From: Minisyncoccota bacterium
GTDB lineage: Bacteria; Patescibacteriota; Minisyncoccia; Phycocordibacterales; UBA5272
DNA length: 64,000 nucleotides
Direction of reading: 5' to 3'
NCBI GenBank assembly: GCA_041651055.1
Contig: JBAZJW010000001.1
Span: 536,506-600,505 of the forward strand
The notes under the pieces were generated by a model. It did no database searches and was not told where the DNA came from. It saw nothing but the letters and a program-made list of their open reading frames with translations. Of the stretch, positions 8,743 to 37,140 are shown one piece after another. A program made the translations under genes and the position numbers. Within the stretch, counting starts at the first letter, position 1. The number at the start of each line of letters is the position of its first letter.

Positions 8743-8785
8743 GGCCTTAGTAGGGACACGGACCTCCAGCCGTCATCCATTTTCT

Positions 8786-20269: not shown

Positions 20270-20404
20270 ATGTCTATAACATATAATCCAAAGCGAAAGA
20301 AGCGTGGAACAACGCACGGATTCCTCGTCCGTATGGCTACAAAAGATGGACGCAGAGTGATTGCACGTCGCCGATCAATCGGACGTAAGAAGCTTTCTGT
20401 TTAA
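20270..20404 (+). CDS. rpmH: 50S ribosomal protein L34.
   Basis: 44 aa [44 protein letters not shown]; not in the ORF track; classic position upstream of rnpA. Confidence 0.9.
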
Positions 20405-20415
20405 TCTGTATCTAT

Positions 20416-21449: not shown

Positions 21450-21660
21450 AGTTTTTTCTTACTTGGGAGAAGTAAAACCTCCTTTTAGATTCCAAATTTC
21501 TTTCTCCTAATTTAAAATCTCTTTTTCTTTTTCAAGTAACCCCTAAAACCAAACGATGTATCCGCCTGCTGGCGGATCATCTCACTCTCGCCTCGTCAAG
21601 CTCCGAGAGTTGGTTTGTAGGGGTTACTTGAGGGTGGTGAATACGGATGCGTATCAAACT

Positions 21661-21776
21661 ACTCCTCACCTAACCTTTTATATCAACTCACGGACCGCGA
21701 CGGCGGGAGTGGGAGGCAACTTTTCAGCAGAAAAGTATGTCGTTTGATATAAAGGGTTGAGGTGAAAAAAGAGAAA
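21661..21776 (+). repeat. Copy L of a 115-nt hairpin-forming repeat (inverted partner at 36108-36255).
   Basis: ACTCCTCACCTAACCTTTTATATCAACTCACGGACCGCGACGGCGGGAGTGGGAGGCAACTTTTCAGCAGAAAAGTATGTCGTTTGATATAAAGGGTTGAGGTGAAAAAAGAGAA. The ends form a stem of about 22 bp (CACCTAACCTTTTATATCAA / TTGATATAAAGGGTTGAGGTG). Confidence 0.8.
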
Positions 21777-21840
21777 ATTTGAATCTAAAAAAGAAACTTT
21801 GAATTTAGAAAAAAGAAAGAAGTTTGAGTCTATCAACTAT

Positions 21841-22827
21841 TTATAGTCCATTTAAAGAAGGATCGGAAAGACACGCATTTGCTTCGCAGGCATAATTTTT
21901 TACGAAGGTCATGTTTGTGGCGGAAGGTCCTGGATTAATTGGGCAGGCCCATTTTGGAATCGCACTTGTAAAGCCTGTAGAAGTATTACAATCAGCACTG
22001 GGATCATTTGAATTCATTCCAACTGTTCCGCAGCAGTTGTATGCCGCGAACACGCTTGCAGGAGCAGGAACATTGCCATAGGTTTGTGCTCCCATTTTCC
22101 CAGCCAATAGCTGTGCTCCTCGTGAGATGTTGGTTGCTGGGTCAAGAATAGAACCACTGCATGCACCAGGTTGGTTTATTTGCATGAGACCGCAGTCATG
22201 TGACTGGTTGTCATTCACATGATCAGCATTAACATCTAAAGAGCGATTCTCTTTACATAAAAGAACAATAAGCATCTTTACGTCGACCCCATTATTTGCG
22301 GCTGCTGTTTTTAGGAGGGGTAAATATCGAGTGTAATTACAACCACTAAGAGCACTGCATGTTGCTGCGCCACAAACATTTCCAGAACTAAGAGATGAAA
22401 GAGTGCTTTGGACAGTTGCTGCCGGCACCGCACCCGTCGCAGCCACCCCTCCCGTTCCCGCGGCCCCACCTGTTACCATCGCTCCCCCCTTCACTCCCTC
22501 CGTCTTTAATACCGCAAGCCCAACATCTCCATTAAGTAAATCCTTATTAAACGTATAGATAACAATAAACATAGAAAACACACCAAGTAATCCAACCGTT
22601 ACCCTTTTAAACTCTTCATTCGACATCTTTACATACTTCTCAGACGCAGCCATTCTCCATATACCTGCTAATGCATATCTATAAAAAGCAGCAGCTACAA
22701 TTGCCACAAACAACAACGTATACAAAAACTTAGACGTTGCAAGAAAAGACCCTGTAATCTGTGTAGTGGGAGACACAGCTGCTCCGGTGATTTGGGAGAC
22801 GATGGAGGGTTCGAGGTTTTGGTACAT
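21841..22827 (-). CDS. Membrane-anchored peptidoglycan lytic transglycosylase (2-TM N-module plus SLT-like domain; VirB1-like role).
   Basis: N-terminal two TM helices. C-terminal ENRSLDVNADHV...SHDCGLMQINQ resembles the SLT E...GLMQ catalytic motif. The 5' 320 bp is nearly identical to 24201-25031. Confidence 0.6.
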   Translation of the reverse strand: MYQNLEPSIVSQITGAAVSPTTQITGSFLATSKFLYTLLFVAIVAAAFYRYALAGIWRMAASEKYVKMSNEEFKRVTVGLLGVFSMFIVIYTFNKDLLNGDVGLAVLKTEGVKGGAMVTGGAAGTGGVAATGAVPAATVQSTLSSLSSGNVCGAATCSALSGCNYTRYLPLLKTAAANNGVDVKMLIVLLCKENRSLDVNADHVNDNQSHDCGLMQINQPGACSGSILDPATNISRGAQLLAGKMGAQTYGNVPAPASVFAAYNCCGTVGMNSNDPSADCNTSTGFTSAIPKWACPINPGPSATNMTFVKNYACEANACLSDPSLNGL

Positions 22828-22829
22828 AG

Positions 22830-24146
22830 TTATTCAACGCTAATGAGATTCGTTCGAAGTAACCACAGAGAACCGTTTTGTTTTTGAATAAATCCCATAG
22901 AAACATTGTCTGGAGAAAGAACAGGGTTAGTTATATCCATTTCCCCATCTGATTCATTGAATGAATATAAAGGGTATGTGGCTCCTGATGTCGTATCAAC
23001 AATTTTTAATGTATCGGTGAAGTGCGTTCTTCCTTGGAACCAATCATCAGGCAGGCCCTCTTCGGCAATCGGTATCATAACGGGAACGGCACATAGAAGA
23101 AAATCTCTAACACCCCAGACACATTTCGAAGCAAGTGTTGGAGAAGAAAGGACTATTTCTTTTTGTGATTGAGAAATAAAAGCAACAAGACCTCTGTCTG
23201 TCCACACACTACTTAAAAAAGTTCCTTTCTCTCCAGGATTACTCATGAGTCCAGTCTTATCACCAGTGCGATACTCAAAAGAAGGAAGAGAAACAGTCAT
23301 TCCTAAAACATAAGCTGAAGGATTGCTTGTAGCATAGAGCGTGTCTCCACCATATGAAAGAGACCATTCTTTGAAAGGAGATGTTGAGACCAAGCCTCCT
23401 CCTTTTGCTGTAATGGTATAGATGGCACTTCCGTTTGTCGATGGGACAAGATAAGAAAGAAGTGTTCCTTTTTTATTGGTGGCAATTGAGGTTATTCCAA
23501 GAGGAAGTGATGTCATTTTTGTAAGTGACTGAGGGCTTCCGTTTGGAAGAGAGTTCGGAATTATTGCTAGTACTGTTGTTATGACTTGCTTGTCTTGGTC
23601 GAAAGAACGTATGGCAACGCGTGTCCCATTTTCAAAAATGTATGCATCATGAACTCCCAAGACTGTGGTGTTGGTTACCTGTCTAGTTACTCCTTCTTTT
23701 AGATCTTGCTCATAAATATATCCTGTCGCCCTATCGACAAACATGAATATGGTTGAAGTTGCTCTAATCGTCTTCTTTACCATAAGAGGTGTAGTTGTTC
23801 CTTTTGTTGTCGTTGTAGAAAACACATCAAGAAGTATTTGTCGTGTCACAAAAGTCTGTCCTGTTGCTGGTTTGTCCCACACTTTAGTTAAAGCTTGGAG
23901 AGTGGTCGGTACAGACGTTGTCCCTGTTGTTTGGTTTGATCCCGTAGATGCATTGTTAGTATCAGGACCCCCTCCTCCAAAAATAAATTGAAAACCCTTC
24001 GTTAAAGGAGAGGTCGGAAGTGAATTTGTTGGTTTCGCAAGCGAGGGTGTTATGGCCGGTGTTACATAAACGAAATACCACACAAGAATGACAATAGAAA
24101 AAAGAAGAACGAGTCCGACGATAAAAAGTAAACGACGATTATTCAT
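22830..24146 (-). CDS. N-terminally anchored extracytoplasmic protein of unknown function.
   Basis: 438 aa; single N-terminal TM then Thr/Ser-rich linker. Confidence 0.5.
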   Translation of the reverse strand: MNNRRLLFIVGLVLLFSIVILVWYFVYVTPAITPSLAKPTNSLPTSPLTKGFQFIFGGGGPDTNNASTGSNQTTGTTSVPTTLQALTKVWDKPATGQTFVTRQILLDVFSTTTTKGTTTPLMVKKTIRATSTIFMFVDRATGYIYEQDLKEGVTRQVTNTTVLGVHDAYIFENGTRVAIRSFDQDKQVITTVLAIIPNSLPNGSPQSLTKMTSLPLGITSIATNKKGTLLSYLVPSTNGSAIYTITAKGGGLVSTSPFKEWSLSYGGDTLYATSNPSAYVLGMTVSLPSFEYRTGDKTGLMSNPGEKGTFLSSVWTDRGLVAFISQSQKEIVLSSPTLASKCVWGVRDFLLCAVPVMIPIAEEGLPDDWFQGRTHFTDTLKIVDTTSGATYPLYSFNESDGEMDITNPVLSPDNVSMGFIQKQNGSLWLLRTNLISVE

Positions 24147-24200
24147 ACAGAAAGTATAGCATCCTCTTCTGCAAGAGGATGGGTTAAAAAAGTTTTATTA

Positions 24201-25031
24201 CTAGTGTCCACTAAATGAAACATGAAAGTGTTCCGTTGTTGTTAAGGAATCACACCCTGGAGATTCGTCCCAGAATTTAAATCCTCCCCAGGCATACCGT
24301 ATATCACACCCTGTCATCGATCCTGCTGCTGTACCATTTGTTTTAATAAAATTTAAAAGACCAGAAGACAGACTCAAATCCACAGCTTCTTTCCCTACTC
24401 CGTGATTAGAGTTAGCGCTGTGAGGTTCTGTTCCTCCTGTTATGAGAAGGCTGCAGGTTGGACAGGCTGTCCTTAGCTTTTGAAGCATAGTAATGGTTGC
24501 TGGGTTAAGGCCAGCCACATTTGTACACCCTGTGGTTTGTGCTCCAGAACAAGGGTCGTGGTTGATGGATATCCCCGCTAATTGTGCACGAACATCGGCT
24601 TCTGAAGTGCTCGCCCCTGCCGGTACCGCACCCGTTGCCCCAGTCGCCCCTCCTCCACCAAAAACTACAGCCCCTCCACTCACCCCCTCCGTCTTTAATA
24701 CCGCAAGCCCAACATCTCCATTAAGTAAATCCTTATTAAACGTATAGATAACAATAAACATAGAAAACACACCAAGTAATCCAACCGTTACCCTTTTAAA
24801 CTCTTCATTCGACATCTTTACATACTTCTCAGACGCAGCCATTCTCCATATACCTGCTAATGCATATCTATAAAAAGCAGCAGCTACAATTGCCACAAAC
24901 AACAACGTATACAAAAACTTAGACGTTGCAAGAAAAGACCCTGTAATCTGTGTAGTGGGAGACACAGCTGCTCCGGTGATTTGGGAGACGATGGAGGGTT
25001 CGAGGTTGGAATATGATACAGAGGATGCCAT
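24201..25031 (-). CDS. Membrane-anchored peptidase M15-like peptidoglycan hydrolase (same 2-TM N-module as 21841-22827).
   Basis: C-terminal LITGGTEPHSANSNHGVGKEAVDLS and TTEHFHVSF resemble the M15/VanY zinc-binding motifs (SxHxxGxAxD ... EpWH). Confidence 0.55.
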   Translation of the reverse strand: MASSVSYSNLEPSIVSQITGAAVSPTTQITGSFLATSKFLYTLLFVAIVAAAFYRYALAGIWRMAASEKYVKMSNEEFKRVTVGLLGVFSMFIVIYTFNKDLLNGDVGLAVLKTEGVSGGAVVFGGGGATGATGAVPAGASTSEADVRAQLAGISINHDPCSGAQTTGCTNVAGLNPATITMLQKLRTACPTCSLLITGGTEPHSANSNHGVGKEAVDLSLSSGLLNFIKTNGTAAGSMTGCDIRYAWGGFKFWDESPGCDSLTTTEHFHVSFSGH

Positions 25032-25037
25032 GGATGA

Positions 25038-26012
25038 CTATTGTTTACGAGTATCAAACACAAGATCAATATCAACCTGTGCTTTTTGTAATCTCCTTAC
25101 ACTGTTGTCGACACTGATAGAAAGAGGTCGAGATCCGTAGCTATCTTTCTTTGGTGAAAGTGAAAGAAGTGTCCCTCCTATTGGGGTGATAGGCATACCG
25201 TCTAGTGACCAGTCATATGAAACAGTAGATCCGAGAGATCCTCGAGATGAAAGGAAGAAAGGAACAAGACTTAATGTAAAATCTTTTGTTGTTTCAAATC
25301 GTCGAGTGATAAGGTTTGTAAAATCTGTCCCCAAAACAGCATCATACGTATAAAGAAGAGGCATTACTTTGTGTGGATATATCTCTATGGTGTTTTCTGC
25401 TTTTGTACCATAGGGTGCCGTTGCTATAACTTTTACGGTTGTTGAATCTCTTACATACTCAAGAGGAATGGGTACGGATTGTTTTCCTGCTCCGGAAAGA
25501 GATTCGAGCAGTTCGTCGTTTGCATACCATGTATATGAAATAAGATCTGCCGGAACTTTCTTTCCATTCTCACTCATTGCGGGAATAGCGGAAACACGCG
25601 CTGTTGACCCTTCGCTTCCAAGAGACCTCCCCTCATAAAAAGGAGGAACATATCCTTCGGAGGATTCGTAGAGAAGAGAGACAGATTCAGGAACAAGGCT
25701 TACAGAGGCTTCGAGCGTTGTGCCATTTGCGGTGACTGCTTTCGCACGAAGAGGTAACACTTCACCAGAAGCACCTGTTCGCACGGTTATTTCTTTTTTA
25801 CCAAAACCTGAAAGAATTTGTTTTGTTCCAGAATACCAGGTGATCATCGCAGTAGAAACGTTAAATGAATAACTTGAAAGGGTGAGTGTTACAGAAGAAT
25901 ACGGTGCTGGGCTCGTAGGATTTATATCGATGGTGCCATCTACACTTGACGCAGACGCCACAAAAGGCGTTGTTAAAAAAAGAACAGTTAAAAAGATGTG
26001 GGTTATTTTCAT
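25038..26012 (-). CDS. Secreted protein of unknown function.
   Basis: 324 aa with signal peptide MKITHIFLTVLFLTTPFVASA. Confidence 0.5.
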   Translation of the reverse strand: MKITHIFLTVLFLTTPFVASASSVDGTIDINPTSPAPYSSVTLTLSSYSFNVSTAMITWYSGTKQILSGFGKKEITVRTGASGEVLPLRAKAVTANGTTLEASVSLVPESVSLLYESSEGYVPPFYEGRSLGSEGSTARVSAIPAMSENGKKVPADLISYTWYANDELLESLSGAGKQSVPIPLEYVRDSTTVKVIATAPYGTKAENTIEIYPHKVMPLLYTYDAVLGTDFTNLITRRFETTKDFTLSLVPFFLSSRGSLGSTVSYDWSLDGMPITPIGGTLLSLSPKKDSYGSRPLSISVDNSVRRLQKAQVDIDLVFDTRKQ

Positions 26013-27826
26013 AGACCTCTTGATTGTGCTACTTCATCTTTCATGGCTTTTATTTGAAGAAGTTGAGACGGATCACTTGTGATAATTTGATCTTCTGTAT
26101 ACGATGCTACAATTTTGATTGCTACATGTTTGAGTCCTGCAAAGAATATTCCCTCCCCTACACCAGATTCGAGAAGTAGGAACTTTTCTTCATCAGTTAA
26201 ATTGAAGGTCTTTTGTACAAGGTCGATAGATGAAGGAGATTGTTTGAGGAGAAGTTGAATGGAAGAGTTTGTGATAATAGGAAGACCATAGGGTGACTTC
26301 AAAAAGTCTCCAACATCTTGGGTTATTGTCGCAAGTCCTAGGTAATATTTTCGTCCACGCTTTGCAAGACCGAAAAGGAAAGATGCAGTGTCATCATTTT
26401 TCATCATAATCCACGCTTCATCCACCACGAGAAGTCGTTTTTTGATGACTTTACGAACGGAATTCCAAATATAATGCGTGATAATGTACATTGCTACCGG
26501 CTTCAGTTCTTCCTCCATGTCTCGAATAGAAAAACATACAAGTTTTTTATTGATGTCTACGTTTGAGGGTTGGTTGATAAAGCCAGACCATGTCCCTTTC
26601 GTGTATTTTGAAAGACGCTGAATTAAGTCTGTTGAACCATCGATTCCACCGAGAACTGTTTCGAAGTCTGAAAGAAGAGGTGGCTCAAGTTTTGTGAAAT
26701 CAACATCACCACTAATATCCTTGAGGGCATAGGTCTCTGTAATTGCCTGGTCAATGATTGCGTCTTCGGCTGGTGTGAGACCTCCTAGCATCACACGGAA
26801 CAATCCCACGAGGTTAACGATGTTTGAACGAAGAACTTCAGACGGAGACTCGTCTTCTGTTGGATGAGGAAGATCAAAAGGATTGATATGGTGCTCACTT
26901 GTAAGTGAAATGTCGAAATATCTACCTCCAACAGACTCTGCGAGATATTCGTATTCACGTTCTGGGTCGATAATAATAACTTCCGTGTCGAACATCAATG
27001 TGCGGAGAATTTCCAATTTTGTAAGATAACTTTTTCCAGATCCAGACTTGGCGAATACGATGGAGTTATAGTTTTCAAGAGAAAAACGATCAAACAAAAT
27101 AAGCGAACCGTTGTGACGGTTAAGTCCGTAGAGTATCCCCCTATCAGAAGAAAGGTCAAAAGATACGAAAGGAAAGAATGATGAAAGAGGAGATGTGTTT
27201 AATTTATTTTTGATGCCGAGCAAGTCTTGTCCAAGAGGAAGCGTTGAAAGAAAACCTGTGTCTTGCTGAAAGAGCGCTGGCTTCACATAAATAAGACGAC
27301 TTTCGAGAATATTTTTGATTTCACTTTCTACCTTGTCCACCTCATCTTCACTGCCACCGTAAATAGAAATATACAAAGAGACTTCAAACATTTTTTCCTG
27401 AGCCTGTGTTAATCCGTCACGCAAATCTTCGAGGTCCTTGTAGGCAACATCAAGCGAAGGGTCTCGTACAAGTCCCTTTTCTTCACGTGTCATGATTTGA
27501 CTCTCTACTTCAGCTACCTTGCGTTGAAATTTTTTCATTACATCACCGGTATCAAGCGGTGTCACGTGAATGGCAACGTCGAATACTTTGTCTAAGTTGA
27601 TGATGGGACTCAACCAATTCTCAGAAAGATATCTCGGATATGAAATGACAAAGTAAGAACGTACGATACTTGTGCCTAAGTTGAGTGATTTCGGTTGTAC
27701 ACCAAGAGCACTTGGTGCGATGATGTCTTTCAATTGCATTTCGGCAACTTTGTACACCTGCTCTGGAAGAAGTGGGGATACCGGAGAGTCTTGTTTTTTT
27801 GAATTGAGAAAATCGAAAAGTCCCAT
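26009..27826 (-). CDS. virB4: Type IV secretion ATPase, VirB4/TrbE/CagE family.
   Basis: 605 aa; Walker A FAKSGSGKSY, Walker B LLVVDEAW; length and motif spacing of Gram-positive-type VirB4 (TcpF/PrgJ-like). Confidence 0.85.
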   Translation of the reverse strand: MGLFDFLNSKKQDSPVSPLLPEQVYKVAEMQLKDIIAPSALGVQPKSLNLGTSIVRSYFVISYPRYLSENWLSPIINLDKVFDVAIHVTPLDTGDVMKKFQRKVAEVESQIMTREEKGLVRDPSLDVAYKDLEDLRDGLTQAQEKMFEVSLYISIYGGSEDEVDKVESEIKNILESRLIYVKPALFQQDTGFLSTLPLGQDLLGIKNKLNTSPLSSFFPFVSFDLSSDRGILYGLNRHNGSLILFDRFSLENYNSIVFAKSGSGKSYLTKLEILRTLMFDTEVIIIDPEREYEYLAESVGGRYFDISLTSEHHINPFDLPHPTEDESPSEVLRSNIVNLVGLFRVMLGGLTPAEDAIIDQAITETYALKDISGDVDFTKLEPPLLSDFETVLGGIDGSTDLIQRLSKYTKGTWSGFINQPSNVDINKKLVCFSIRDMEEELKPVAMYIITHYIWNSVRKVIKKRLLVVDEAWIMMKNDDTASFLFGLAKRGRKYYLGLATITQDVGDFLKSPYGLPIITNSSIQLLLKQSPSSIDLVQKTFNLTDEEKFLLLESGVGEGIFFAGLKHVAIKIVASYTEDQIITSDPSQLLQIKAMKDEVAQSRGL

Positions 27827-27830
27827 AGAA

Positions 27831-28469
27831 TTATTCTTGTGTTATTTTAGGTGCCGAACGATCTTGCTCGCTTGGGTTGAAGAGTTTATAGAAAAGCTCT
27901 ACAACCTCTTCTGTGCCAAGCTTTTGTGCACGAATACCGAAACGGGAAAGCCCTTGCACTACGGTCGCAATGCGTTGCTCGAGTTGTATACGAGCTGCGG
28001 TGAAGGATGCTTGATTTTCGGCGGAAGTATTATTTCCAAGGCCAAACGAAAGCAGTGACGATGTACCTGAAGGCTTTGCGTTTTCTTGGAAATATGGAAT
28101 GACAATAAAGAAATGCTTGGTCATAATGTTTGTCTCGTCTGCAAATTTTTTAATGAACCCCATGTACTCATGGATTTGTATTTTCAAAAGGTCTTCTTTG
28201 ATTTCGGAACTGCGAGATTGAAGTAGTTCCATGTAGGGTTTGATGTTGAGTCTGCGAGATTGAATGAAAAATTCCACAGGGAAATCAAGTGAATTGAGGA
28301 GGGTTTGGAATTGTAGCAAAATAGCCTGTTGTTCGTCCTCGCTCTTAAGAGCGAGGTTGAGTGAATTGGTGATGAGCACTGCACGAAGTTCCCCTGTTTT
28401 GAGTACGACGACACCATCACGAACTCTTTCGATTGGTACAAATTGTTGTGTTGCTGTTCCGACTGCCAT
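27831..28469 (-). CDS. T4SS-cluster hypothetical protein (no TM).
   Basis: 212 aa; 5 nt downstream of virB4. Confidence 0.45.
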   Translation of the reverse strand: MAVGTATQQFVPIERVRDGVVVLKTGELRAVLITNSLNLALKSEDEQQAILLQFQTLLNSLDFPVEFFIQSRRLNIKPYMELLQSRSSEIKEDLLKIQIHEYMGFIKKFADETNIMTKHFFIVIPYFQENAKPSGTSSLLSFGLGNNTSAENQASFTAARIQLEQRIATVVQGLSRFGIRAQKLGTEEVVELFYKLFNPSEQDRSAPKITQE

Positions 28470-28594
28470 GTGAACCTAGTATATCAGACAAGAGAGAAGA
28501 GACGTGTGAGAAAGTACACAAAAGAGAAGAGGCTACTCTTCTCAATATTCAATGAATTTAATAATCAATATTCAAAAGTGATCCAAATACTAGA

Positions 28595-28615
28595 ATTACA
28601 ATGACCGTCATTGCA
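28595..28615. promoter_or_regulatory. Operator-like palindrome ATTACAATGACCGTCATTGCA (also a perfect 49-bp inverted pair at 33133-33181).
   Basis: CAATGACCGTCATTG is self-complementary. Located in the 180-bp gap between operon segments and preceded by AATATTCAA motifs at 28541-28578. Confidence 0.45.
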
Positions 28616-28649
28616 AAAAAACACAATCAACCACCACATAGCTCTCCCC

Positions 28650-29078
28650 CTACTCTTTTTCTTCTTGATTGTGATCAAACACATCTAATCCAAGAGCTAC
28701 ATCGTGTAATCTGTCTTTGTTTGCTTTTGAAAAAATAACTTCTTTAGTTGTGTCTGCTACCACCTTATCGATATGATCATCCCCCACCGCAGGTGTCTCA
28801 GGCTGCTTCCATGTGTAAATCTTTGCACCAGTGTAATATGCGAAAGCACTTTCTAGTATTTCTCCAAAAGAGCGATTATTTATTTTAACAAAAGCGAGCG
28901 CAAGGAAAAGTCCCGCCACAGGAACGATAAGAATAATGGCAATAATTTTAATGGAAACGAATGTCCAAATAAGAAATGAGAAACCTCCAGCTCCGAGCAG
29001 ATACCCGAACTGTTTTAACGTAAGAGGGCCGACGACTTTGTCTTCTGTATCGATGAATTGTGGTACGCGGAATTGCAT
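28650..29078 (-). CDS. VirB3/PrgI-like small membrane protein.
   Basis: 142 aa, two adjacent TMs, N-terminal FIDTEDKVVGPLTLKQFGYL; position next to virB4. Confidence 0.45.
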   Translation of the reverse strand: MQFRVPQFIDTEDKVVGPLTLKQFGYLLGAGGFSFLIWTFVSIKIIAIILIVPVAGLFLALAFVKINNRSFGEILESAFAYYTGAKIYTWKQPETPAVGDDHIDKVVADTTKEVIFSKANKDRLHDVALGLDVFDHNQEEKE

Positions 29079-29152
29079 ATATTTTAGTATACCTCACTTT
29101 ATTGTTTCCTCGTAAAGAGCTAAACAAGAGAAGGAATGTCTTGATTTTTTGT

Positions 29153-29234
29153 AAAATATTCAATAAAACAATAATCAATATTCAGAATTATGCGAAAATG
29201 CTAGTAGATATTAAATATTGTTTTATTGAATATT
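29153..29234. repeat. Inverted pair of the AATATTCAATAAAACAA motif (AATATTCAATAAAACAATAATCAATATTCAG ... AAATATTGTTTTATTGAATATT).
   Basis: The same 17-mer occurs at 11351-11377 and inverted at 13216-13243; TTGAATATTCAA is a 12-bp palindrome. Confidence 0.6.
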
Positions 29235-29985
29235 ACTCTGAGATTTCCCTATACGGATCCACATTGTACTTCGTCGGCGCGGTGCTGTAGGTCGCAGCTT
29301 GAAGTTTTGGCTTCGCCGTTGTCACCCCCTGATCACCGAACATATAGTCTTCCAGTGCGACGGTTTGATCAAGAGAAACATCTTCCTTTTTTTCTATCGA
29401 AGCGATTTGCTCTTGTATATGAGAAAGTCTAGCCTCCACCTCCTCATCATTTGGAATAGATCCTAAGATTTGTAATTGTTCGAGAAGTTGTGAGCGTGAT
29501 CCAGGTGTAAGAACGAAAGGTTTTTTCTGAGCCGGCTTAACCCCTTTCGATACCTCTGACTGATCTTTTACCATTCCTGACTCGCGTTTTGTGGTATCGA
29601 GAATTTCTTTTCGTAATTCGTCGGGAGATCTTTCTCCTTGAAAGACAAGCTCCTTGACCCCACCTTCTGCTTTTCCAAGAATAGAAATGCGGGCCTTTTC
29701 GAGAATACTTTTTTCTAGGTCGGTTGCAATTTTATATGCGTCTTCTGGGGAGACTTTTACAAGATCTTGAAGTGCAAGAAGAACATCTTTAGGCTCAAGT
29801 GCTCCGATAAGAATAAAAGAAATGACATTTGAGAGCGCGACGTATGCGTTTACGGGAAGATTATATGTCTTTCCTAAAATTGCTGTTGCCTTATTAACCT
29901 CATCTCCTTCGATGAGATGTTGAACATCTGCTGGGGCTGCATCGAACAATTCATCTAAGTTTTTTGCTATGTATGGAGGGTTCAT
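29233..29985 (-). CDS. Hypothetical protein of the T4SS-like cluster.
   Basis: 250 aa; hydrophobic segment NVISFILIGAL. Confidence 0.45.
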   Translation of the reverse strand: MNPPYIAKNLDELFDAAPADVQHLIEGDEVNKATAILGKTYNLPVNAYVALSNVISFILIGALEPKDVLLALQDLVKVSPEDAYKIATDLEKSILEKARISILGKAEGGVKELVFQGERSPDELRKEILDTTKRESGMVKDQSEVSKGVKPAQKKPFVLTPGSRSQLLEQLQILGSIPNDEEVEARLSHIQEQIASIEKKEDVSLDQTVALEDYMFGDQGVTTAKPKLQAATYSTAPTKYNVDPYREISE

Positions 29986-29988
29986 AGA

Positions 29989-32961
29989 TTATACAGTTGC
30001 TGCGGCTCCTGCGGGAGAGGGTGTAACAGTTGGAGGCCGTGTTATGGTTTCACCTGATGAGGAAGATCCTCCTTGGGCTTTTTTAATTGTTTCCACCGCA
30101 AGGTCTTCAAAAGGAACAAAGTTGTCTGCTCCTCCACTCTTTGGAGAAGGGCTTGTTGGTGGTGTTGTTATTGAACCTTCTTCCGCCGCATCATCTCCTT
30201 TTTGAGCTCTGGCAATAGTTTCTGCTGCAAACTGTTCTGATGCCTGTTGCTGTTCGTGTGTTTGAGTATCAATAAGATTTATTGCACTTTTTTGTTTTTC
30301 TTCACGTCTCTTCGCTGTTCTTTCAGAAAAAGATTCTATTTGTGGATTAAATGAAGAAGAATTAAAAGTCTTCTGCATGTTCACGACATCGCTTGCCGAC
30401 ATTACAGACGGAGGGTTTGTGATTCCGTTTGGATTTGTCCGTTGAGCATTATTTGGAGGAGGTGTAACACCTCGCACAGGGGCGACGAAGGAATTATTTC
30501 CTACGGCGCCACGTACTCTAGGAGTATTTTGTCTAAAGATTGCAGGTTGTTGATTTGGTTGCCATGGAGTTCTCGGAGTTCCTGCTGGAACATTTCCTGT
30601 CGGTGCAACAAAAGGAGTTCCGGGTGTTGTTGGGTTTGTCGTTTGGTTTTGTGCATTAACTGCCTGAGCTGTCATAACCGCTTGAGTTGCGGCGCTCGGT
30701 TGCCCTTGAAGGTTTGTAGCCATTGTTCCGAAAGCTGAAACTCCAGGACTTACCGTATTTGCTTGCGATGTAATTTGATCTCGAAGACTTTTTGGCAAGC
30801 TTTCAAAAAAGGCATCTTTTCTGTCTCCGTCTTTCATGCTATTGTACTTTTTCACCTGATCTCCTTCCTCTTCTTTTATTTTTGCTGCAGTTATTTGCCC
30901 ATCAGTACGAATTCCTCCGATGTTGGCACCTTGTAATTGCCCTCCACTTGATTTTTGTGTCAGATATTTTTCACGAGCATCTCCATCTTTAATGCTTGCA
31001 TACTTCGAGCGCATTGCCTTATCTTTTTCAGCGAAGGTTTTATCATATGTCGCATCTGATCCTTTGCTCATACCTCCCATGCCCATGATTCCAGCGCCCA
31101 TGCCAGCCTTGGTCAGACCCTTATTCACTGCTCCAATATTTCTCGCGTCATATGTGCTCGTTGCAAGAGAATTCGTGAGAGAATAAAGGCCTCGCCCTGT
31201 TCGACTGCCTTGCATCTTATCCATCCATCCACTGTCTCGTGCGCTCGCCGCGATCTTTCCTGCTGTTCCTCGTGCGAGGAATCCTGCACCCCCTGTCGCC
31301 ACACCGAGACCGAATCCTCCGACTTTACCCATCGCATCTGTGGCAAAGGTTCCTGCTTCTCCTGCGATTTTCTTGGTAACTTTCATTGTAATATTGAGCA
31401 TGATGAGCATCATCGCAAGGTTGAAGAATGTCACGATTGTCCCCTCGCCTGTACCAGAAAGCCCAGATAAAGAACCTGCACTTTGTTGCAAAAGTCCTGG
31501 CTTATTAAACACGTCCATAAATTTTAGAGAAAGCGCAAGCATTATCATAAACACAGGAGCCACAACAAGTTGTTCAAAGAATAGTTTTCGAAGCGTTTTT
31601 GCTTTTTCTCCAAGAGCAGGAATCACACTGTCTACGAAAAGTATAGGAGAAGCGACAGTGAGAAATATTAAAAGTGCCGTACGTACAATTATTATTCCAG
31701 CTGCCATAAAGAATATGTATGCGGCATACAAAACAAAGACGACGGCCATAAGGGCTCCTGCGGTGGTATTGATTCCGCCAACAAGCCCTTTTGACGAAGA
31801 GTCTCCTGCCACTTTAGTGGCGCTCATTACAAGGTCTTGCAGTCCAAGCTTATTCATAATAAGTGCCCCCGGGGTACTCTTTCCTGCGCTAAACAAATCA
31901 GCAAGACTTCCTGAGAGTGCATCTGGACCTACAGCACTTGAGTATATATTTAGTGCAACTATATTAGAGACATCAATGAGCGTGCGCGTGAGCGGGTATG
32001 AAAAGTTTACGAAAAGTGCGAAGATGATAAGCCATGGGAAAAAAGCTTCAAAGGTTTTTTCTCTTCCAATGATATACATGAAACCAAGATACAGCCCCGC
32101 GAACACAATGAAGAGCGATACGATTTGCCGTACAATGGCCCAAATAGGATAAAGGTCGGATGTTGCCCATTTGCTGAAATTAAGAATACCGAGCTGCACT
32201 CCATAGTTGAGAACGTTTGCCCCGAACCACACAAGGAATCCCGCAATCTGAAGGAGTGTGTTTTTAATAATCCACCCAATGAGTGAGTCAATACAGGCAA
32301 CAAGGTTTCCTGAGGCGAGACTACAGTCACTTGGACGAGTGTCACGAACTACCGCCGGAGTGTTTGTGTTTCCTGCAGCTGCTGCAGTAATTGTTGAAGG
32401 GTTGTTTTGAACATTGGCCAGATCGCTTCCCGCAGTAGTATTTCCTGATTTTATTTGTAGAGCAGTTAATAGTGCTCCAGTTTGTATTTCTTTTGTGTAC
32501 TGATCATACGCACCTCTTTGAGGTGCACTTGCACTGTATTTATTGATTAAATTTTTACTAGCTGCACCGTCAACAGAGCTTTGCCAAGCTTGGATGGCTT
32601 TAATTTGAGCATCTACAGCCGGAGTTGCTTTTTGTTTTTCTGCTTCAAAAACAGAGGAGTAAGCGCTAAAACTTAAAAGTTCGGCACTTTTAAAGTCTAA
32701 GGTCGCCTGTCTTTGAATGGTATAAGTTGGAGAGTTTGCGTCTACGGTGAGAAGCTTGTCATCAAGAGCTTTTATGAAGGCATCATGATCAGATTTTACA
32801 ATCCCAAAAAAATAGTCATAAGTTCCTTGAGAATTAAGTGCATTCCCCGTTGCTGTTTGACTGTCTGTCGCTTGTGCAAAAGCTCTCTCCGGCATCACAA
32901 ATCCACCCAACACGCCGACAAACATGAGAGAAATAACAGCATACAACCCTAGTCTTTTCAT
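29989..32961 (-). CDS. VirB6/TrbL-like polytopic membrane protein with large N-terminal periplasmic region and Pro/Thr-rich C-terminal tail.
   Basis: Start set at the MKRLGLYAVISLMFVGVLGG signal (track start 33099 is read-through). At least 8 TM helices in the middle; low-complexity C-terminus. Confidence 0.6.
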   Translation of the reverse strand: MKRLGLYAVISLMFVGVLGGFVMPERAFAQATDSQTATGNALNSQGTYDYFFGIVKSDHDAFIKALDDKLLTVDANSPTYTIQRQATLDFKSAELLSFSAYSSVFEAEKQKATPAVDAQIKAIQAWQSSVDGAASKNLINKYSASAPQRGAYDQYTKEIQTGALLTALQIKSGNTTAGSDLANVQNNPSTITAAAAGNTNTPAVVRDTRPSDCSLASGNLVACIDSLIGWIIKNTLLQIAGFLVWFGANVLNYGVQLGILNFSKWATSDLYPIWAIVRQIVSLFIVFAGLYLGFMYIIGREKTFEAFFPWLIIFALFVNFSYPLTRTLIDVSNIVALNIYSSAVGPDALSGSLADLFSAGKSTPGALIMNKLGLQDLVMSATKVAGDSSSKGLVGGINTTAGALMAVVFVLYAAYIFFMAAGIIIVRTALLIFLTVASPILFVDSVIPALGEKAKTLRKLFFEQLVVAPVFMIMLALSLKFMDVFNKPGLLQQSAGSLSGLSGTGEGTIVTFFNLAMMLIMLNITMKVTKKIAGEAGTFATDAMGKVGGFGLGVATGGAGFLARGTAGKIAASARDSGWMDKMQGSRTGRGLYSLTNSLATSTYDARNIGAVNKGLTKAGMGAGIMGMGGMSKGSDATYDKTFAEKDKAMRSKYASIKDGDAREKYLTQKSSGGQLQGANIGGIRTDGQITAAKIKEEEGDQVKKYNSMKDGDRKDAFFESLPKSLRDQITSQANTVSPGVSAFGTMATNLQGQPSAATQAVMTAQAVNAQNQTTNPTTPGTPFVAPTGNVPAGTPRTPWQPNQQPAIFRQNTPRVRGAVGNNSFVAPVRGVTPPPNNAQRTNPNGITNPPSVMSASDVVNMQKTFNSSSFNPQIESFSERTAKRREEKQKSAINLIDTQTHEQQQASEQFAAETIARAQKGDDAAEEGSITTPPTSPSPKSGGADNFVPFEDLAVETIKKAQGGSSSSGETITRPPTVTPSPAGAAATV

Positions 32962-33132
32962 GGGTTTAGTGTACCACAAGAATCTTGGCAAATTAGTGCA
33001 CAGAGGGTAAGAGAAAGCTAGAAGTTGGAAGCTAAAGGCTAGAAGCTTACACGGGGGAATATTCAACCTGCCTGCGCAGGCAGGTGAAACAATTTTCAAT
33101 ATTCAAACATTATTCAAAATTCAAACGCCGCA

Positions 33133-33181
33133 ATTACAATGACCGTCATTGCACAGGGCCCGCAATGACGGTCATTGTAAT
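33133..33181. promoter_or_regulatory. Perfect 20-bp inverted repeat ATTACAATGACCGTCATTGC / GCAATGACGGTCATTGTAAT with a 9-nt spacer; candidate operator or terminator.
   Basis: Read directly. Preceded by the palindrome ACCTGCCTGCGCAGGCAGGT (33068-33090) and AATATTCAA motifs. Confidence 0.5.
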
Positions 33182-33308
33182 GTGTAATTGTATGTATCTG
33201 TATTTCTCTAAACTTTACACTTTATTTCTTTACACCTTCACCCAGCCCTCCCATCTCTTACCTTTTCACCCTCCCCTTTATTCCTTTACACTCTTATCTT
33301 GTACACTT

Positions 33309-35063
33309 TTACCACATCTCTAGTCGTTGACGTGTAGACGCGCAGTCGGCTTGGTACGTTGTGAGAGCCCCTCCTTCAAGCGAAGCTGTCTCAGCCTCTC
33401 CTTTGTATGTCTGGTAATCCCCTTCTCTTGATATTCCTGAAGTAAGGCTTGGTAATTTTTGAGAATCGACTTGGTTTTGATATGCATTAAAGGTATTTAG
33501 AATTTCTTCACTAGAAAGAGATGCTTCTATTTTGTTCTGTGTGTTTGTTACCAGTGTTTTTGTTGTTCCTATTAGAGAAATTTCTGCTCTAAGTTTTACA
33601 ATAAGTGCGTCATTACTTGCCTTCTTCCCTGTGTAGTAGTTTGTAAATGAAGCCTGTGTCGCGCTCGCTTGTGACTGAGGGTAATCTGCTACAAGCTTGT
33701 CATAACACGCCTTTACGGTATCTATTTGACCTTGAAAGACTTGAACACTAGAAATGAAGCTTTGATCTGTTGTTTCTAGTGTTGCAAGGGACTCTGCGTG
33801 CATAGCGAGCTGGTCTTTTGTCGGCTTGGTTAGTGTTGTCTTTGCTGTAGGGTTGTTCGTTAAATCTTTTACAGGAACTGTCGTAGATGTCGTCGTTGTG
33901 TTATTCGGAGTAACAGCAGTGACGGTGGTCGTTTGTCCACCAACGGTTGCCTGTGCCGTAGAAGCCCCTCCGCCAGAACCTCCTCCACTAAGAGGACTCA
34001 TTATGCCGTTAATAAGACCGATTGTTGTGAAAGCTGTACTGATAAGTGATCCCGCCCCTTTTCCGAATCCTGCAAGTGCAACTTTTGTTGGTCCATCGAT
34101 TGCTCCTTTGAATGAATTATTGAGCACACTCGCTGCTTGCTGTATTTCTTCTTGAATACAAGGAAGGCTTAGAGCGGCTGCCCCCGTTACCGTTACTCCA
34201 TTGGCATCAGTCGTCGTTCTTTTCGTACACACGGTTTTACTTTTTATTCCACCTCCTGCCGCTGTGTCTGCTTTGGCAAGTTCTACTTTATCTGCCGCCG
34301 CCTTATCTATTACTTGCTGAGAGAGTACGGATTTTGTGTATGCGTTATCCCCTCCTGTTGTGGCAAGCCAGTTGTCCCATGAAGGATTTATTGCTGACAC
34401 TGCTTTGATTGCAGCGAGTGTTTTCGGATCTGACAAGCTTCCGCAGAGAGCGTTGTTGAGCTCTGTTTTGCGTGCCGTATATTGTGCTTGTGTATAGTTC
34501 GGATTGACTGACATTACGTCGAGCTTCGCCTGGGCAGAGAGGGCTGCGTCGGTGCACCTGGTTTTCTGTTCTGCCGCCGGAATACCGGAGGCTCCAAGTA
34601 TTGCAAGCTTTGTAGAAAGTGGAGCTGCGTCGAATTTTGTGGTTGCAATAACAGAACCCAAAATACTATTACTATATACGCCATTTTGTTTTGCGATATC
34701 GCCAAGACTTGCGTTTACTACTGCAAGTGTTTTGTTTTGAAGGTATAACTCTGGATTCTTAATGAGAAGTGCCTCTGTCCCAAGAGATCCTTTAATAAGA
34801 TTTTGAATAGCGTCCCCTGACTGCATAATACTGATGAGCGTCATCGCGTCTCTCATTGGAATGAGGACGTTATCATTTATTGTGGCAAGGGTTTGCTGTG
34901 TTGCTGTTATCGGTGTTGCAAAAGCCGTGATGGTTTCTTTCACTGCATCGAACCATCCCTGTACTACATTTTTACAGTTGGAACAATAAATAGCATTTAC
35001 CTGTTGAGGTGTGGAAGAATAGAGAATCGTTGTAAAGAGAACACTGAGAATAATTTTTTTCAT
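33309..35063 (-). CDS. Large secreted protein of unknown function.
   Basis: 584 aa with signal peptide MKKIILSVLFTTILYSS; Ala/Thr-rich. Confidence 0.5.
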   Translation of the reverse strand: MKKIILSVLFTTILYSSTPQQVNAIYCSNCKNVVQGWFDAVKETITAFATPITATQQTLATINDNVLIPMRDAMTLISIMQSGDAIQNLIKGSLGTEALLIKNPELYLQNKTLAVVNASLGDIAKQNGVYSNSILGSVIATTKFDAAPLSTKLAILGASGIPAAEQKTRCTDAALSAQAKLDVMSVNPNYTQAQYTARKTELNNALCGSLSDPKTLAAIKAVSAINPSWDNWLATTGGDNAYTKSVLSQQVIDKAAADKVELAKADTAAGGGIKSKTVCTKRTTTDANGVTVTGAAALSLPCIQEEIQQAASVLNNSFKGAIDGPTKVALAGFGKGAGSLISTAFTTIGLINGIMSPLSGGGSGGGASTAQATVGGQTTTVTAVTPNNTTTTSTTVPVKDLTNNPTAKTTLTKPTKDQLAMHAESLATLETTDQSFISSVQVFQGQIDTVKACYDKLVADYPQSQASATQASFTNYYTGKKASNDALIVKLRAEISLIGTTKTLVTNTQNKIEASLSSEEILNTFNAYQNQVDSQKLPSLTSGISREGDYQTYKGEAETASLEGGALTTYQADCASTRQRLEMW

Positions 35064-35068
35064 AGATA

Positions 35069-36001
35069 TTATTTAGGAGTATATCCTACGGTGAAGACGT
35101 ACCCTTTTTCTTTTGATGTAAAGCTTATATTTTTTGAATCAAAATAATGAGAAAGTTCTTGGTGAATACGAAGCACAGACATTGTGCTATTTTGATATTT
35201 TTGAAAAGCAAGTGTTGCACGAAGTGGGTCCGTGGAGGCGTGTGAAAGGTCTCCTAATGTGTCTCTATATAACGCTATACGGTTAATTGCCAGTAAATGG
35301 TATGCAGAAGCCGACAAAGGAACAGGTAACGCTAGCAACTTTTTTAATTTTGCATCAACTCGAGTGTAATTCTTTGCCAAAGGTGCAAGATCCTCTGCTT
35401 TTTTTGTATCTGTGAAATTTTGTACTGCAGTAAGGTCTTCCAGTGCTGCTTGCTCTGTAATAACATCATCCAGAATTACAGCAACTGCATTTCCATACAC
35501 CCGCACAGTTTCGTTTGCTTCATTTTTTACAACGTTGAGATCTTTAAAAGAATACGTTGTCGGAACCATTTTTGCGGCTTCTTCTGCCATTAATTGATTC
35601 ACGACATTTTGTTGTGATGCTTCATCGGTAATGTTGTTGCTTTCGAGGTATGTCGAAGCAACATAGAGATTTTTTGAAAATGATGAGGTAAGGTTGTTCG
35701 GATCATTAAGTGCCGCTATGGCTTTCGGGTCTGGTTGCGAATTTTGCAATTCTTGAGCCGCTGCAGCACCTCCTTCAGAACTTAGAATAAGTTCTTTCCA
35801 GCTTATTTGTCCGTTGCCATCCGCATCTTTTGCGAAATCATTCACCGTGGTCAACTTATTGAAGTCCACAGGTGTGTAATTGCTTACTTGCGGCTTGACT
35901 CCTATCCACCTTGCAGGAACAAAAGCACTCATAATTAAAAGCATAACGATACCTCCGATAATAAGGAGAGGTTTTGAAGGTGAGACAGGTTGGGGATTCA
36001 T
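35069..36001 (-). CDS. N-terminally anchored extracytoplasmic protein; first gene of the minus-strand block.
   Basis: Start set at MNPQPVSPSKPLLIIGGIVMLLIMSAF (TM); the track's longer N-terminus is leader read-through. Confidence 0.5.
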   Translation of the reverse strand: MNPQPVSPSKPLLIIGGIVMLLIMSAFVPARWIGVKPQVSNYTPVDFNKLTTVNDFAKDADGNGQISWKELILSSEGGAAAAQELQNSQPDPKAIAALNDPNNLTSSFSKNLYVASTYLESNNITDEASQQNVVNQLMAEEAAKMVPTTYSFKDLNVVKNEANETVRVYGNAVAVILDDVITEQAALEDLTAVQNFTDTKKAEDLAPLAKNYTRVDAKLKKLLALPVPLSASAYHLLAINRIALYRDTLGDLSHASTDPLRATLAFQKYQNSTMSVLRIHQELSHYFDSKNISFTSKEKGYVFTVGYTPK

Positions 36002-36107
36002 ATCTGTCAGTATACATTGAAAAAGAATACAAAAGATTGGTATGTTAACATTCTTTCTCCTTGAGACCAGGCTGGTCTTTTTTTGTTTTAAATATTTTTT
36101 TAAAGTC

Positions 36108-36255
36108 TTCTCTTTTTTCACCTCAACCCTTTATATCAAACGACATACTTTTCTGCTGAAAAGTTGCCTCCTACTCCCGCCGTCGCGGGTCGACTGGTGA
36201 TTAGCCGACACCTGTAGACGGTCCGTGAGTTTATATAAAAGGTTAGGTGAGGAGT
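36108..36255 (-). repeat. Copy R of the hairpin repeat, inverted relative to 21661-21776; carries a 32-nt insertion flanked by a GACC microhomology.
   Basis: The reverse complement matches copy L over about 115 nt at 96-98% identity apart from the insertion GTCTACAGGTGTCGGCTAATCACCAGTCGACC. Confidence 0.8.
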
Positions 36256-36287
36256 ATTGGGTTCAATATAGTACTCTCAAGCACACT

Positions 36288-36341
36288 GCAAGGCGAGGCC
36301 TTGTGGCCACAAGGCCTCGCCTTGCAGCCCCCCTTTTTTTT
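36288..36341 (+). terminator. Strong hairpin GCAAGGCGAGGCCTTGTGG/CCACAAGGCCTCGCCTTGC followed by AGCCCCCC-TTTTTTTT; its T-run overlaps the ksgA stop.
   Basis: Read directly: 19-bp stem plus T8. No plus-strand gene lies upstream, so it may be bidirectional, or it may terminate a plus-strand transcript of the repeat element. Confidence 0.6.
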
Positions 36342-37140
36342 ATTTCACCAGATCTTTCACAAGTTTCGAAAGCGAAAGCCATTCCGAAAGCGGCACATCT
36401 TCTGCGCGGACTTTTTCGGAAAGAGAGAGCGACTGAAAAAGAGAAAGAAAGTCCACCTTAGGAACCCCCTCTTTTAAGTTTGAAATGAGGAACTTTCTTT
36501 TGTGAGCAAAGCCGGATTTTACGATTGTAAAAAATAGATCTTCATGAGCACGAGAGTCAAAGTTTTTACGTGAAATGTTTTCTACGGAAAGCACAGCGCT
36601 GTCGACGGTAGGAATCGGATTGAAGCTTCCTTTGTTCACACGATAGACAAGCTTCGGGTCGCCGTAGGCTTTTACAGCAAGCGAAAGAATGGATTCCTTG
36701 CCGTCACGCGCTACGATGCGCTCTGCTACTTCTTTTTGTACGAGCACCACCATGTGTGTCGGCTGAAGCACATCAGAAAGATACCGCCTGAGAATTGCCC
36801 CTGTGATGTAGTATGGAATATTAGCGATAAGCTTGTAGCCTTTGGCGAGTGACTTGTGGTCCGCTGGGTCAAAGGTGAGAGCGTCCCCTTCCACGAGAAG
36901 CAACTTCTCATTTTGTAATTCAGATGGGAAGTTTTCAGTAAGTAATGGGAGTAATTCTTGGTCCTTTTCAAGAGCGACGACAGTGGCTCCGGCTTCTAGA
37001 ATACCCTTAGTGAGAAAGCCTTTTCCAGGTCCAATCTCAAGAACTGTATCGGTCGGTAAAAGGCGACCGGCGGCAACGATAGCCATACGGGCTGGAATTG
37101 ATGTCAGGAAGTTTTGACCGAGAGATTTTTTGGGAAGCAT
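36340..37140 (-). CDS. rsmA: 16S rRNA (adenine1518/1519-N6)-dimethyltransferase RsmA/KsgA.
   Basis: 266 aa; LGQNFL, SAM-binding motif LEIGPGKGFLT. Confidence 0.88.
   Translation of the reverse strand: MLPKKSLGQNFLTSIPARMAIVAAGRLLPTDTVLEIGPGKGFLTKGILEAGATVVALEKDQELLPLLTENFPSELQNEKLLLVEGDALTFDPADHKSLAKGYKLIANIPYYITGAILRRYLSDVLQPTHMVVLVQKEVAERIVARDGKESILSLAVKAYGDPKLVYRVNKGSFNPIPTVDSAVLSVENISRKNFDSRAHEDLFFTIVKSGFAHKRKFLISNLKEGVPKVDFLSLFQSLSLSEKVRAEDVPLSEWLSLSKLVKDLVK

Follow-up and report, generated by a model that had tools for sequence, protein, structure and literature searches.

A putative family of small structured intergenic repeats at the borders of a type IV secretion-like gene block in a Minisyncoccota bacterium

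The closest described counterparts of the sequences analyzed here are small intergenic repeats that form hairpins. REP sequences, mobilized by RAYT, are simple hairpins of 20-40 nt with a GTAG head, and in the REPIN arrangement they stand as inverted doublets with a short spacer. The ERIC (IRU), Correia/NEMIS, RUP and RPE families, found in proteobacteria, pneumococci or rickettsiae, are longer (~100-160 nt), with a long terminal stem and no coding capacity. Hairpin repeats such as REP and ERIC stabilize upstream mRNA. We analyzed a 64,000-nt stretch of the genome of a Minisyncoccota bacterium (GCA_041651055.1, contig JBAZJW010000001.1, positions 536,506 to 600,505; the whole stretch is called the window below), in which two inverted, nearly identical copies of a structured sequence, element E, bracket a gene block resembling a type IV secretion system (T4SS). 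With moderate confidence, E is interpreted here as a hitherto undescribed family of small intergenic repeats that are structured and apparently mobile, of the class that comprises MITEs (miniature inverted-repeat transposable elements), REPINs and ERIC. The bracketing of the T4SS operon by the two copies, L and R, is on our best reading incidental.

Copy L lies at 21658..21776 on the plus strand (covariance model score 140 bits) and copy R at 36107..36258 on the minus strand (120 bits), both being supported also by their folds and by their alignment with each other. The repeat search paired 21682-21783 with 36100-36201 and 21660-21697 with 36219-36256 in reverse complement. In the MAFFT alignment, near-identity runs from TACTCCT to GAGAA (21660-21789 on the plus strand against 36256-36100 on the minus strand), with two mismatches, one C-to-A and one G-to-A, and one 33-nt insertion in R. 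Apart from this insertion the copies are 98% identical (BLAST E ~1e-40), far beyond chance. Thus, a first-pass annotation made from the letters alone had correctly recognized L and R as inverted repeat copies. It was also about right on their distances to the neighboring genes (L ends 52-65 nt from the stop codon at 21841, R ~100 nt from the ATG at 36001), and the open reading frames (ORFs) overlapping both copies, which it took for spurious, can indeed be so regarded because the ENA assembly calls no gene over L or R. A template/variable repeat pair of a diversity-generating retroelement was considered and dropped, as the differences between L and R amount to one C-to-A, one G-to-A and one indel, all non-coding.

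The same annotation had seen no other copy in the 64 kb, which proved wrong. A diverged third copy, U, is located at 21522..21638 on the minus strand, head-to-head with L across a 19-nt spacer between their 5' ends (21639..21657). It was identified by alignment, by its fold (-53.4 kcal/mol) and by the covariance model, where its score of 118 bits (E ~4e-33) comes from a model whose source alignment included U itself. U and L are ~65% identical and have four helices and the conserved loops in common. Together with their A/T-rich tails they form the arms (21460-21645 and 21650-21839) of a large imperfect palindrome at 21460..21839, centered at ~21648 and detected by local alignment of its two halves, which fills almost the whole spacer between yidC and the last T4SS gene. 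With 98% identity between L and R, against ~65% between L and U, the sequences indicate that L and R are linked by a recent copying or gene-conversion event with 21660-21789 as its unit. Searched over the window, the model built from L, R and U finds these three copies only, the next match (29 bits) being a generic terminator hairpin. The Logan contig that carries rnpA and yidC (L002) ends at window position 21551, exactly 30 nt into U. The Logan assembly uses k = 31, and a k = 31 graph stops in this way on entering a repeat, so that the contig end hints at further U-type copies in the sample.

The fold of E is stable, with -49.8 kcal/mol (z = -6.7) for L on the plus strand and -55.9 kcal/mol (z = -5.8) for R on the minus strand. 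The earlier description of each copy as a long hairpin therefore holds for the long and stable fold, but not for its shape: E folds as a Y-shaped three-way junction with two inner hairpins, and this shape is recovered in the minimum-energy fold of each sequence alone. The closing stem P1 comprises 21 bp (CACCTAACCTTTTATATCAAC / GTTTGATATAAAGGGTTGAGGTG). Beyond P2 (5 bp) and a GGA/GA internal loop follows the GC-rich stem P2a (4 bp), whose loop is GACG except in two copies with GGCG or GCCG; P3 (7 bp + 4 bp) ends in an AGCA loop. The conserved unpaired parts are a 5' AAYAC lead, the GGA/GA loop, GAG and CGU at the junctions, and an A-rich 3' tail (AAAAAGA). The element measures ~115-120 nt, and 152 nt in R, where the 33-nt insertion (36189..36221, minus strand) lies on the 5' side of the GGA/GA loop in the alignments. 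This insertion is flanked by a GACC...GACC microhomology with a period of 32 nt, in agreement with the first-pass annotation. It is missing from U and from three copies found in other genomes (both copies at locus L050 and the copy at L051; a fourth, at L075, has its own unaligned insert columns in that region), so that R more probably gained these nucleotides than L lost them.

Comparison of the copies demonstrated extensive covariation. U differs from L/R by 13 compensatory pairs. Its outer stem relative to L/R has CACC..GGTG -> CAAG..CTTG and CCTTTTATAT..ATATAAAGGG -> CCCCTACAAA..TTTTAGGGG; one inner stem has CCGC/GCGG -> GCTT/AGGC with the GACG loop unchanged, and the second CTTTTC/GAAAAG -> TCCGCC/GGCGGA with the AGCA loop unchanged. 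A first covariance model was built from the alignment of L, R and U and searched over the window (filters off) and over 1.44 Mb of related loci; a second-round model added the copy at L051, and all seven copies then found (L, R and U, two at L050, one each at L051 and L075) were aligned. Standard pairs fill 94.1% of the pair cells in this alignment, compared with 64% after shuffling of the columns and 41-51% after a shift of the 3' partner by 1-3 columns, and 36 of the 41 base pairs have changed on both sides; the observed values were reached by none of 500 shuffles, and the margin over the controls is large, these figures being somewhat inflated as the alignment was fitted to the model. The loops and junctions have long been conserved across deeply diverged genomes (VirB4 ~72% and DnaA ~55% identical).

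The E strand folds more stably than its complement in all seven copies, by 1.1 to 14.3 kcal/mol, and the alignment contains 10 G.U cells versus 3 A.C cells. Because of these two asymmetries it is suggestive that one particular strand, as RNA or single-stranded DNA, is the folded species, the copies representing ~5 independent lineages. The very strong covariation, the conserved loops and junctions and the strand preference are also what would be expected if E were a functional non-coding RNA family with several paralogous genes, either having its own promoter or being processed as a structural RNA. The E strand would then be the transcript, and the GGA/GA loop (possibly with tandem sheared G.A pairs) and the GACG and AGCA loops would be predicted sites of protein or RNA binding. 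The insertion in R falls at a structurally tolerant position, like the variable arms of RNA families, and weak promoter-like hexamers occur just upstream of R. We regard this explanation as a serious though less probable alternative. The positions of the copies are non-orthologous between genomes and closer relatives have empty sites, which is unusual for a conserved RNA gene. Their orientation to the neighboring genes is inconsistent, R and the L051 copy being sense, and the L075 copy and one copy of each head-to-head pair antisense. No intrinsic terminator follows the element, whose tail is A-rich, and the head-to-head pairs, 18-19 nt apart, leave no room for separate promoters.

A search for known RNAs gave no counterpart of E. 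tRNA-Lys is the only match in the whole window at the gathering thresholds of Rfam 15; when 21400-21900 and 36000-36400 were scanned by E value, only sub-threshold matches appeared, mostly to microRNA and snoRNA families, and tRNA and tmRNA scanning found no match for the element. Cores resembling 5S RNA, SRP RNA, Y RNA and ribozymes were judged by eye and dropped, as no model matched them and the hammerhead core CUGAUGA is absent.

Further members of the family were sought around VirB4 genes, with one genome per GTDB species; this gave 80 loci with 10-kb flanks, and ~85 T4SS neighborhoods were surveyed in all. In the sequence searched, the family consists of 7 copies in 4 Paceibacteria genomes, beyond which nhmmer --max and two motif scans found none. 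The model made from the window copies only detected two copies at locus L050, 8548-8661 (minus strand) and 8680-8794 (plus strand), each with ~54 bits and E ~3e-13. The second-round model scores 50.5 bits for the copy at L051 (18-130, plus strand), which is cut by the end of the locus. The copy at L075 (1516-1639, minus strand), in which the core alone is conserved, scores 25.6 bits; its first-round match was 1544-1609 on the minus strand (23 bits), with the core ACGGA-GCGC-GACG-GCGC-GAG ... UUUUCAGCAGAAAA. A borderline match at L017:2143-2226 (19.9 bits) was set aside as unconvincing. L050, L051 and L075 belong to a clade distant from the source genome of the window (VirB4 ~72% identical). 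The T4SS neighborhoods of ~25 closer relatives contain no E copy, and BLAST, nhmmer and the covariance model found nothing like L or R in the relatives.

The L050 copies repeat the arrangement of U and L, the minus-strand copy preceding the plus-strand one across a spacer of 18 nt, and in both pairs the members have diverged from each other; R and the copies at L051 and L075 appear single. The positions also differ between genomes, with E at the block ends in the window, inside the block at L050, and between uvrD and ksgA at L051 and L075. At L075 the uvrD-ksgA gap (1075-1985, 900 nt) holds several multi-branch hairpin elements, including the degenerate E copy and units of a second family with TGTCA-type stems, described below. 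The same gap contains a further Y-shaped element, TTTTGACTGA...TCAGTCAAAA, with the inner hairpins GTATCCGC..GCGGATAC and GTAAAAT..ATTTTAC.

Comparison with relatives indicates that both spacers of the window are filled sites. The distance from ksgA to the first T4SS gene is 339 nt in the window versus 37-157 nt in relatives having no extra gene between them, and that from the last T4SS gene to yidC is 391 nt versus -4 to 146 nt in the closer clade. The clearest empty site is that of L099 (GCA_023267595.1; VirB4 94%, DnaA 95% identical), in which synteny is identical from uvrD to the penicillin-binding protein (PBP) gene, one junction is 47 nt long, the genes overlap by 4 nt at the other, and E is absent; L007, L011, L012 and others are likewise empty. 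All these comparisons are between species, not strains. Similar differences occur in the distant clade, where the spacer upstream of PrgI has 488 nt in L050 versus 115 nt in its close relative L049 (VirB4 97%), and where E stands immediately upstream of ksgA in L051, uvrD and ksgA abutting in L043 (95% identical). Exact insertion boundaries were not obtained between L049 and L050, as their coding DNA is 73-79% identical and the spacers are unalignable. Because both window spacers are short and empty in relatives, the copies of E would have arrived by insertion.

The bracketed block itself (21841..36001, minus strand) has 11 genes, for which Pfam and the gene calls suggest an SLT-domain protein, VirB4, a TraC-like protein, PrgI and large unknown proteins. 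The gene order in the window is dnaN and dnaA (minus strand); rnpA and yidC (plus strand, to 21449); U and L; the block; R; and ksgA, a hypothetical gene and uvrD (minus strand). Using tblastn with the window proteins, wherever the contig reaches, we found the order uvrD-ksgA-T4SS-yidC (convergent)-rnpA-dnaA-dnaN and its orientation to be kept in ~60 species-level genomes, with VirB4 identity ranging from 93% down to 70% and DnaA identity down to ~50%. VirB4 (26009-27826) is 88-95% identical across the 120 relatives listed out of 8000 candidates (E <= 1e-30), whereas the best non-self match of ksgA (36340-37140) has 74% and the other block genes are merely 25-60% identical. This difference between VirB4 and ksgA makes the T4SS locus a strongly conserved core feature, and from the sequences VirB4 appears to be under unusually strong constraint in this clade. 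In a published survey, the T4SS of Patescibacteria were found to be chromosomal, usually without a relaxase, and in Paceibacteria located near dnaA, dnaN, rnpA and ksgA (PMC12102498). The block, as judged by synteny, is ancestral, fixed, origin-proximal and vertically inherited chromosomal content, not part of E.

These observations bear on another suggestion of the first-pass annotation, that the pair could mark the ends of a mobile or invertible segment. L and R would then be the inverted terminal repeats of a 14.6-kb T4SS unit, such as a composite transposon, an island resembling integrative and conjugative elements, or a segment flipped by a recombinase. The repeats are indeed inverted, 98% identical and flank the block exactly, and near-identity over 130 nt could in principle support RecA-mediated inversion. 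Such a unit is nevertheless very improbable, because the block occupies the same locus in the same orientation in the ~60 species without these repeats, in line with the chromosomal, near-origin placement reported by the survey (PMC12102498). The annotation had itself counted a block found in relatives without flanking repeats or rearrangement as evidence against mobility, and this is what the relatives contain, L099 most clearly. In addition, the block and its flanks have the same GC content; neither within the block nor beside it does Pfam detect a domain of a relaxase, integrase or transposase, several block genes having no Pfam match at all; both assemblies of the genome have one orientation only at both junctions; and the other copies of E are not at block ends. 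The sole recombinase of the window is a XerC/D-like gene (51746-52693), 15 kb from the block and syntenic in the relative L008.

Several other features of this region were observed. A 300-nt direct repeat, 92% identical, lies at 22438-22737 and 24627-24926 within two block genes (21841-22827 and 24201-25031) whose N-terminal parts are paralogous, and both ENA MEGAHIT contigs end in it (at window positions 22636 and ~24867), so that the assembly was broken there. The neighborhood upstream of ksgA varies between relatives: L007:9589-9948 has a gene resembling bAvd / 23S-rRNA-IVP between uvrD and ksgA, and contig ERZ1426853 (475-3631) a large serine recombinase beside a CD-NTase (CBASS-like) gene. 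A gene with an LNT_N domain is inserted between ksgA and the T4SS block in L008-L010 and L013. If oriC adjoins dnaA, in the AT-rich spacer 20113-20415, then the block, ksgA, uvrD and a 1466-aa gene all point to the origin, and ~25 kb (20113-45162) would be head-on to replication, an orientation kept in all relatives examined.

The positions of the copies suggest that E settles between transcription units. Immediately behind the stop codon of ksgA stands a perfect 42-nt palindrome (36286..36327), with C6T9 following on the plus strand; it probably serves as terminator of ksgA. At the other side of R, the first T4SS gene has a TATACT box (36009..36014, minus strand) 7 nt upstream of its ATG, and a box of this type recurs just upstream of that gene in relatives without R (L007, L011, L012, L022, L027, L030 and L099), from which we infer that the operon promoter lies downstream of R. 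R is thus found between the ksgA palindrome and the TATACT box, and the L050 pair is bordered by a terminator hairpin (8469-8493) on one side and, on the other, by a TGATATAAT box also kept in L049. Apparently, the copies of E sit between the terminator of one transcription unit and the promoter of the next. The position of the TATACT box also suggests a leaderless or near-leaderless operon mRNA, and the box is overlapped by a 14-codon ORF (36051-36007, MLTYQSFVFFFNVY) that has a strong AAGGAG site and terminates 5 nt ahead of the ATG. Many gene ends of the window (71-140, 33133-33181, 36286-36327, 49684-49720, 54259-54299 and 62315-62352) carry long hairpin stems (17-34 bp) of perfect complementarity, which are probably intrinsic terminators, the first of them overlapping the 3' end of tRNA-Lys.

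The two insertion loci of the window coincide exactly with the two ends of the operon. Hence the copies could be selected boundary elements of the T4SS operon, whose hairpins insulate, terminate or stabilize transcripts in the manner of REP and ERIC. A second, unrelated family of small structured repeats lends some weight to this idea. In its members, two or three small hairpins, among them TCCAGTG...CACTGGA and TTCCAAAT...ATTTGGAA, are enclosed by a closing stem of 5-6 bp, TGTCA...TGACA; the family is multi-copy, common to several species and has no Rfam match at gathering threshold. Copies are located at 8788-8850, 9485-9547 and, weaker, 982-1044 in the window; at L091:9389-9458, just past the right end of the window; at L024:827-970, 4388-4421, 9183-9247 and 16516-16605; at L021:1557-1620; and at L022:9264-9293. 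At L024 (Nomurabacteria UBA11704) these repeats occupy both T4SS junction spacers, and spacers inside the block as well. This case leaves, by analogy, some room for a boundary function of E, and it also fits incidental bracketing, since small structured repeats repeatedly end up in the spacers of the T4SS locus. We consider selection as boundary elements unlikely. In most relatives the same highly conserved operon does without such hairpins, its spacers measuring 0-50 nt, and the copies at L050, L051 and L075 are not at block ends. The TATACT box places the probable promoter downstream of R, and thus R outside the operon mRNA; this also weakens the candidate role of R and L as stabilizers in the 5' and 3' untranslated regions of the T4SS mRNA. 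On the E strand the hairpins are followed by runs of A rather than U, and no terminator-like site was detected at L.

The interpretation of E as an apparently mobile repeat family would account for the locus as follows. The U|L pair would have landed in the spacer between the convergent yidC and last T4SS gene, and R in that between ksgA and the block; L and R would derive from the very recent copying or gene-conversion event, and the bracketing would be a by-product of where tolerable spacers exist. E would be mobilized in trans and selectively near-neutral at its sites. Because target-site duplications are lacking, the loops are conserved and the copies form dimers, recognition may be of the folded single strand, DNA or RNA, as in systems of the IS200/IS605 or REP/RAYT type. 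The suggestion of a MITE-like or REP-like element in the first-pass annotation is broadly borne out, E being small, non-coding, intergenic and repeated, with a terminal stem and with empty sites in relatives. It has to be qualified in that no target-site duplication and no transposase is visible in the window and that the family is an older one, structurally conserved in other genomes. Of the marks of a classical MITE, E has terminal inverted repeats (the 21-bp stem CACCTAACCTTTTATATCAAC / GTTTGATATAAAGGGTTGAGGTG) and, between species, presence/absence at orthologous sites, and lacks the target-site duplication.

Detailed comparison with the known systems demonstrates a mosaic of common and distinct features. 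Like REP/REPIN sequences, E is an intergenic, non-coding, structure-forming palindrome that occurs in inverted doublets with a short spacer (U|L and the L050 pair), without target-site duplication, and belongs to a family that persists across diverged genomes with its structure kept. In contrast to them, its unit is a three-way junction of ~115 nt with an AAYAC lead and no GTAG-type head, its copy number here is low, and the window revealed no RAYT or Y1 transposase. With ERIC, Correia/NEMIS, RUP and RPE it has in common the length range, the long terminal stem, the intergenic location and the absence of coding capacity, and with Correia elements also the existence of a long and a short form, distinguished by an indel inside the element. 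However, these families are unrelated to E in sequence, and E has conserved inner loops with strong covariation; Correia elements and most MITEs have TA or other target-site duplications and terminal repeats matching known insertion sequences (IS), neither of which was seen in E. The IS200/IS605-derived palindrome-associated transposable elements (PATEs) resemble E in having no cleavage signature of the terminal-inverted-repeat type, no target-site duplication and a strand-specific fold, and the function of E would likewise depend on hairpins in single-stranded DNA. In IS200/IS605 elements the left and right end hairpins resemble each other, whereas the two inner hairpins of E do not, and insertion takes place on the 3' side of a constant tetranucleotide, whereas on the 5' side AAAC precedes L and CCAA precedes R; no orientation bias was seen in E. 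Integron attC sites are likewise imperfect palindromes of ~100 nt, and E has a RYYYAAC-like box (ACCTAAC) at one end, a GTTRRR-like box (GTTGAGG) at the other and a bulged stem base, but its copies are inverted instead of forming an array in one orientation, no integrase was found, and the box match is low in information content. An integron reading was rejected, as the window has no IntI, the homology passes 7 nt and 15 nt beyond the stem ends and continues beyond the would-be crossover point, and the "cassette" would be a 14-kb conserved operon.

Several results speak against E being a mobile repeat. No direct repeat is common to the sequences flanking L (..ATCAAAC | AATTTGA..) and those flanking R (..AACCCAA | GACTTTA..), so that no target-site duplication is seen at either copy, and they have no common flanking target, including a fixed target of the IS605 type. 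No transposase domain was found among the ~50 ORFs of the 64-kb window. Only three copies occur in the 73.6 kb of the source genome that were covered (the window and an extension of ~9.6 kb beyond its right end, L091, which has none), and with the family present in 4 of ~85 T4SS neighborhoods the status of a multi-copy mobile element is not demonstrated. Searches for exact patterns gave no further copy, with 0 matches for a 22-mer in GTDB genomes and 0 for a 20-mer in IMG/VR; the single match of the 20-mer in JGI metagenomes (L005) is exact over 22 nt (~25 nt with mismatches), has neither the partner arm nor other similarity, and was treated as chance. Six-frame translations of E compared with 5.8 billion protein clusters gave no called ORF overlapping any copy. 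Loops and junctions kept in this way are seen more typically in functional RNAs than in MITEs undergoing decay. Finally, the rough chance that two insertion loci fall exactly on both ends of one operon is only 1-2% among ~55 spacers, so that some functional link to operon boundaries is conceivable. A structure-aware pattern gave six chance matches in IMG/VR, all rejected by the covariance model, and BLAST against phage and plasmid collections found no member of the family.

A broader proposal, which we put forward only tentatively, is that E represents a new structured nucleic-acid class specific to the Candidate Phyla Radiation (CPR)/Paceibacteria, either a non-coding RNA with a three-way junction and GGA/GA, GACG and AGCA loops, or a REPIN-like element with an enzyme recognizing the folded single strand. 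If true, E and the TGTCA...TGACA family would together mean that ultra-small streamlined genomes maintain populations of small structured repeats, which repeatedly settle at the edges of the origin-proximal T4SS locus and may modulate these borders. In the very compact genomes of Patescibacteria few mobile elements or regulatory RNAs have been recognized, and a covariation-supported family absent from Rfam would add a new element type. The seven-copy alignment and the covariance model are a ready probe for surveying CPR genomes, and experimental follow-up would be worthwhile if E is an RNA or depends on a new transposase. The 130-nt inverted repeats are also the sole obvious substrate for rearranging the T4SS block in this genome.

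Other repeats were observed at the left side of the window. The two direct TGTCA copies at 8788-8850 and 9485-9547, 98% identical, lie on either side of a 140-aa ORF (8935-9357); this GC-rich stretch is upstream of a gene for a PilB-like ATPase. A 1189-aa ORF (3965-7534) contains long periodic repeats of 27 nt and 54 nt (families D1 and D2). The region at ~6-9 kb has a GC content of 0.50-0.55, compared with ~0.42 elsewhere, and lies next to the T2SSE ATPase gene (9645-11345); its small ORFs, which have no Pfam matches, may be pilin-like genes.

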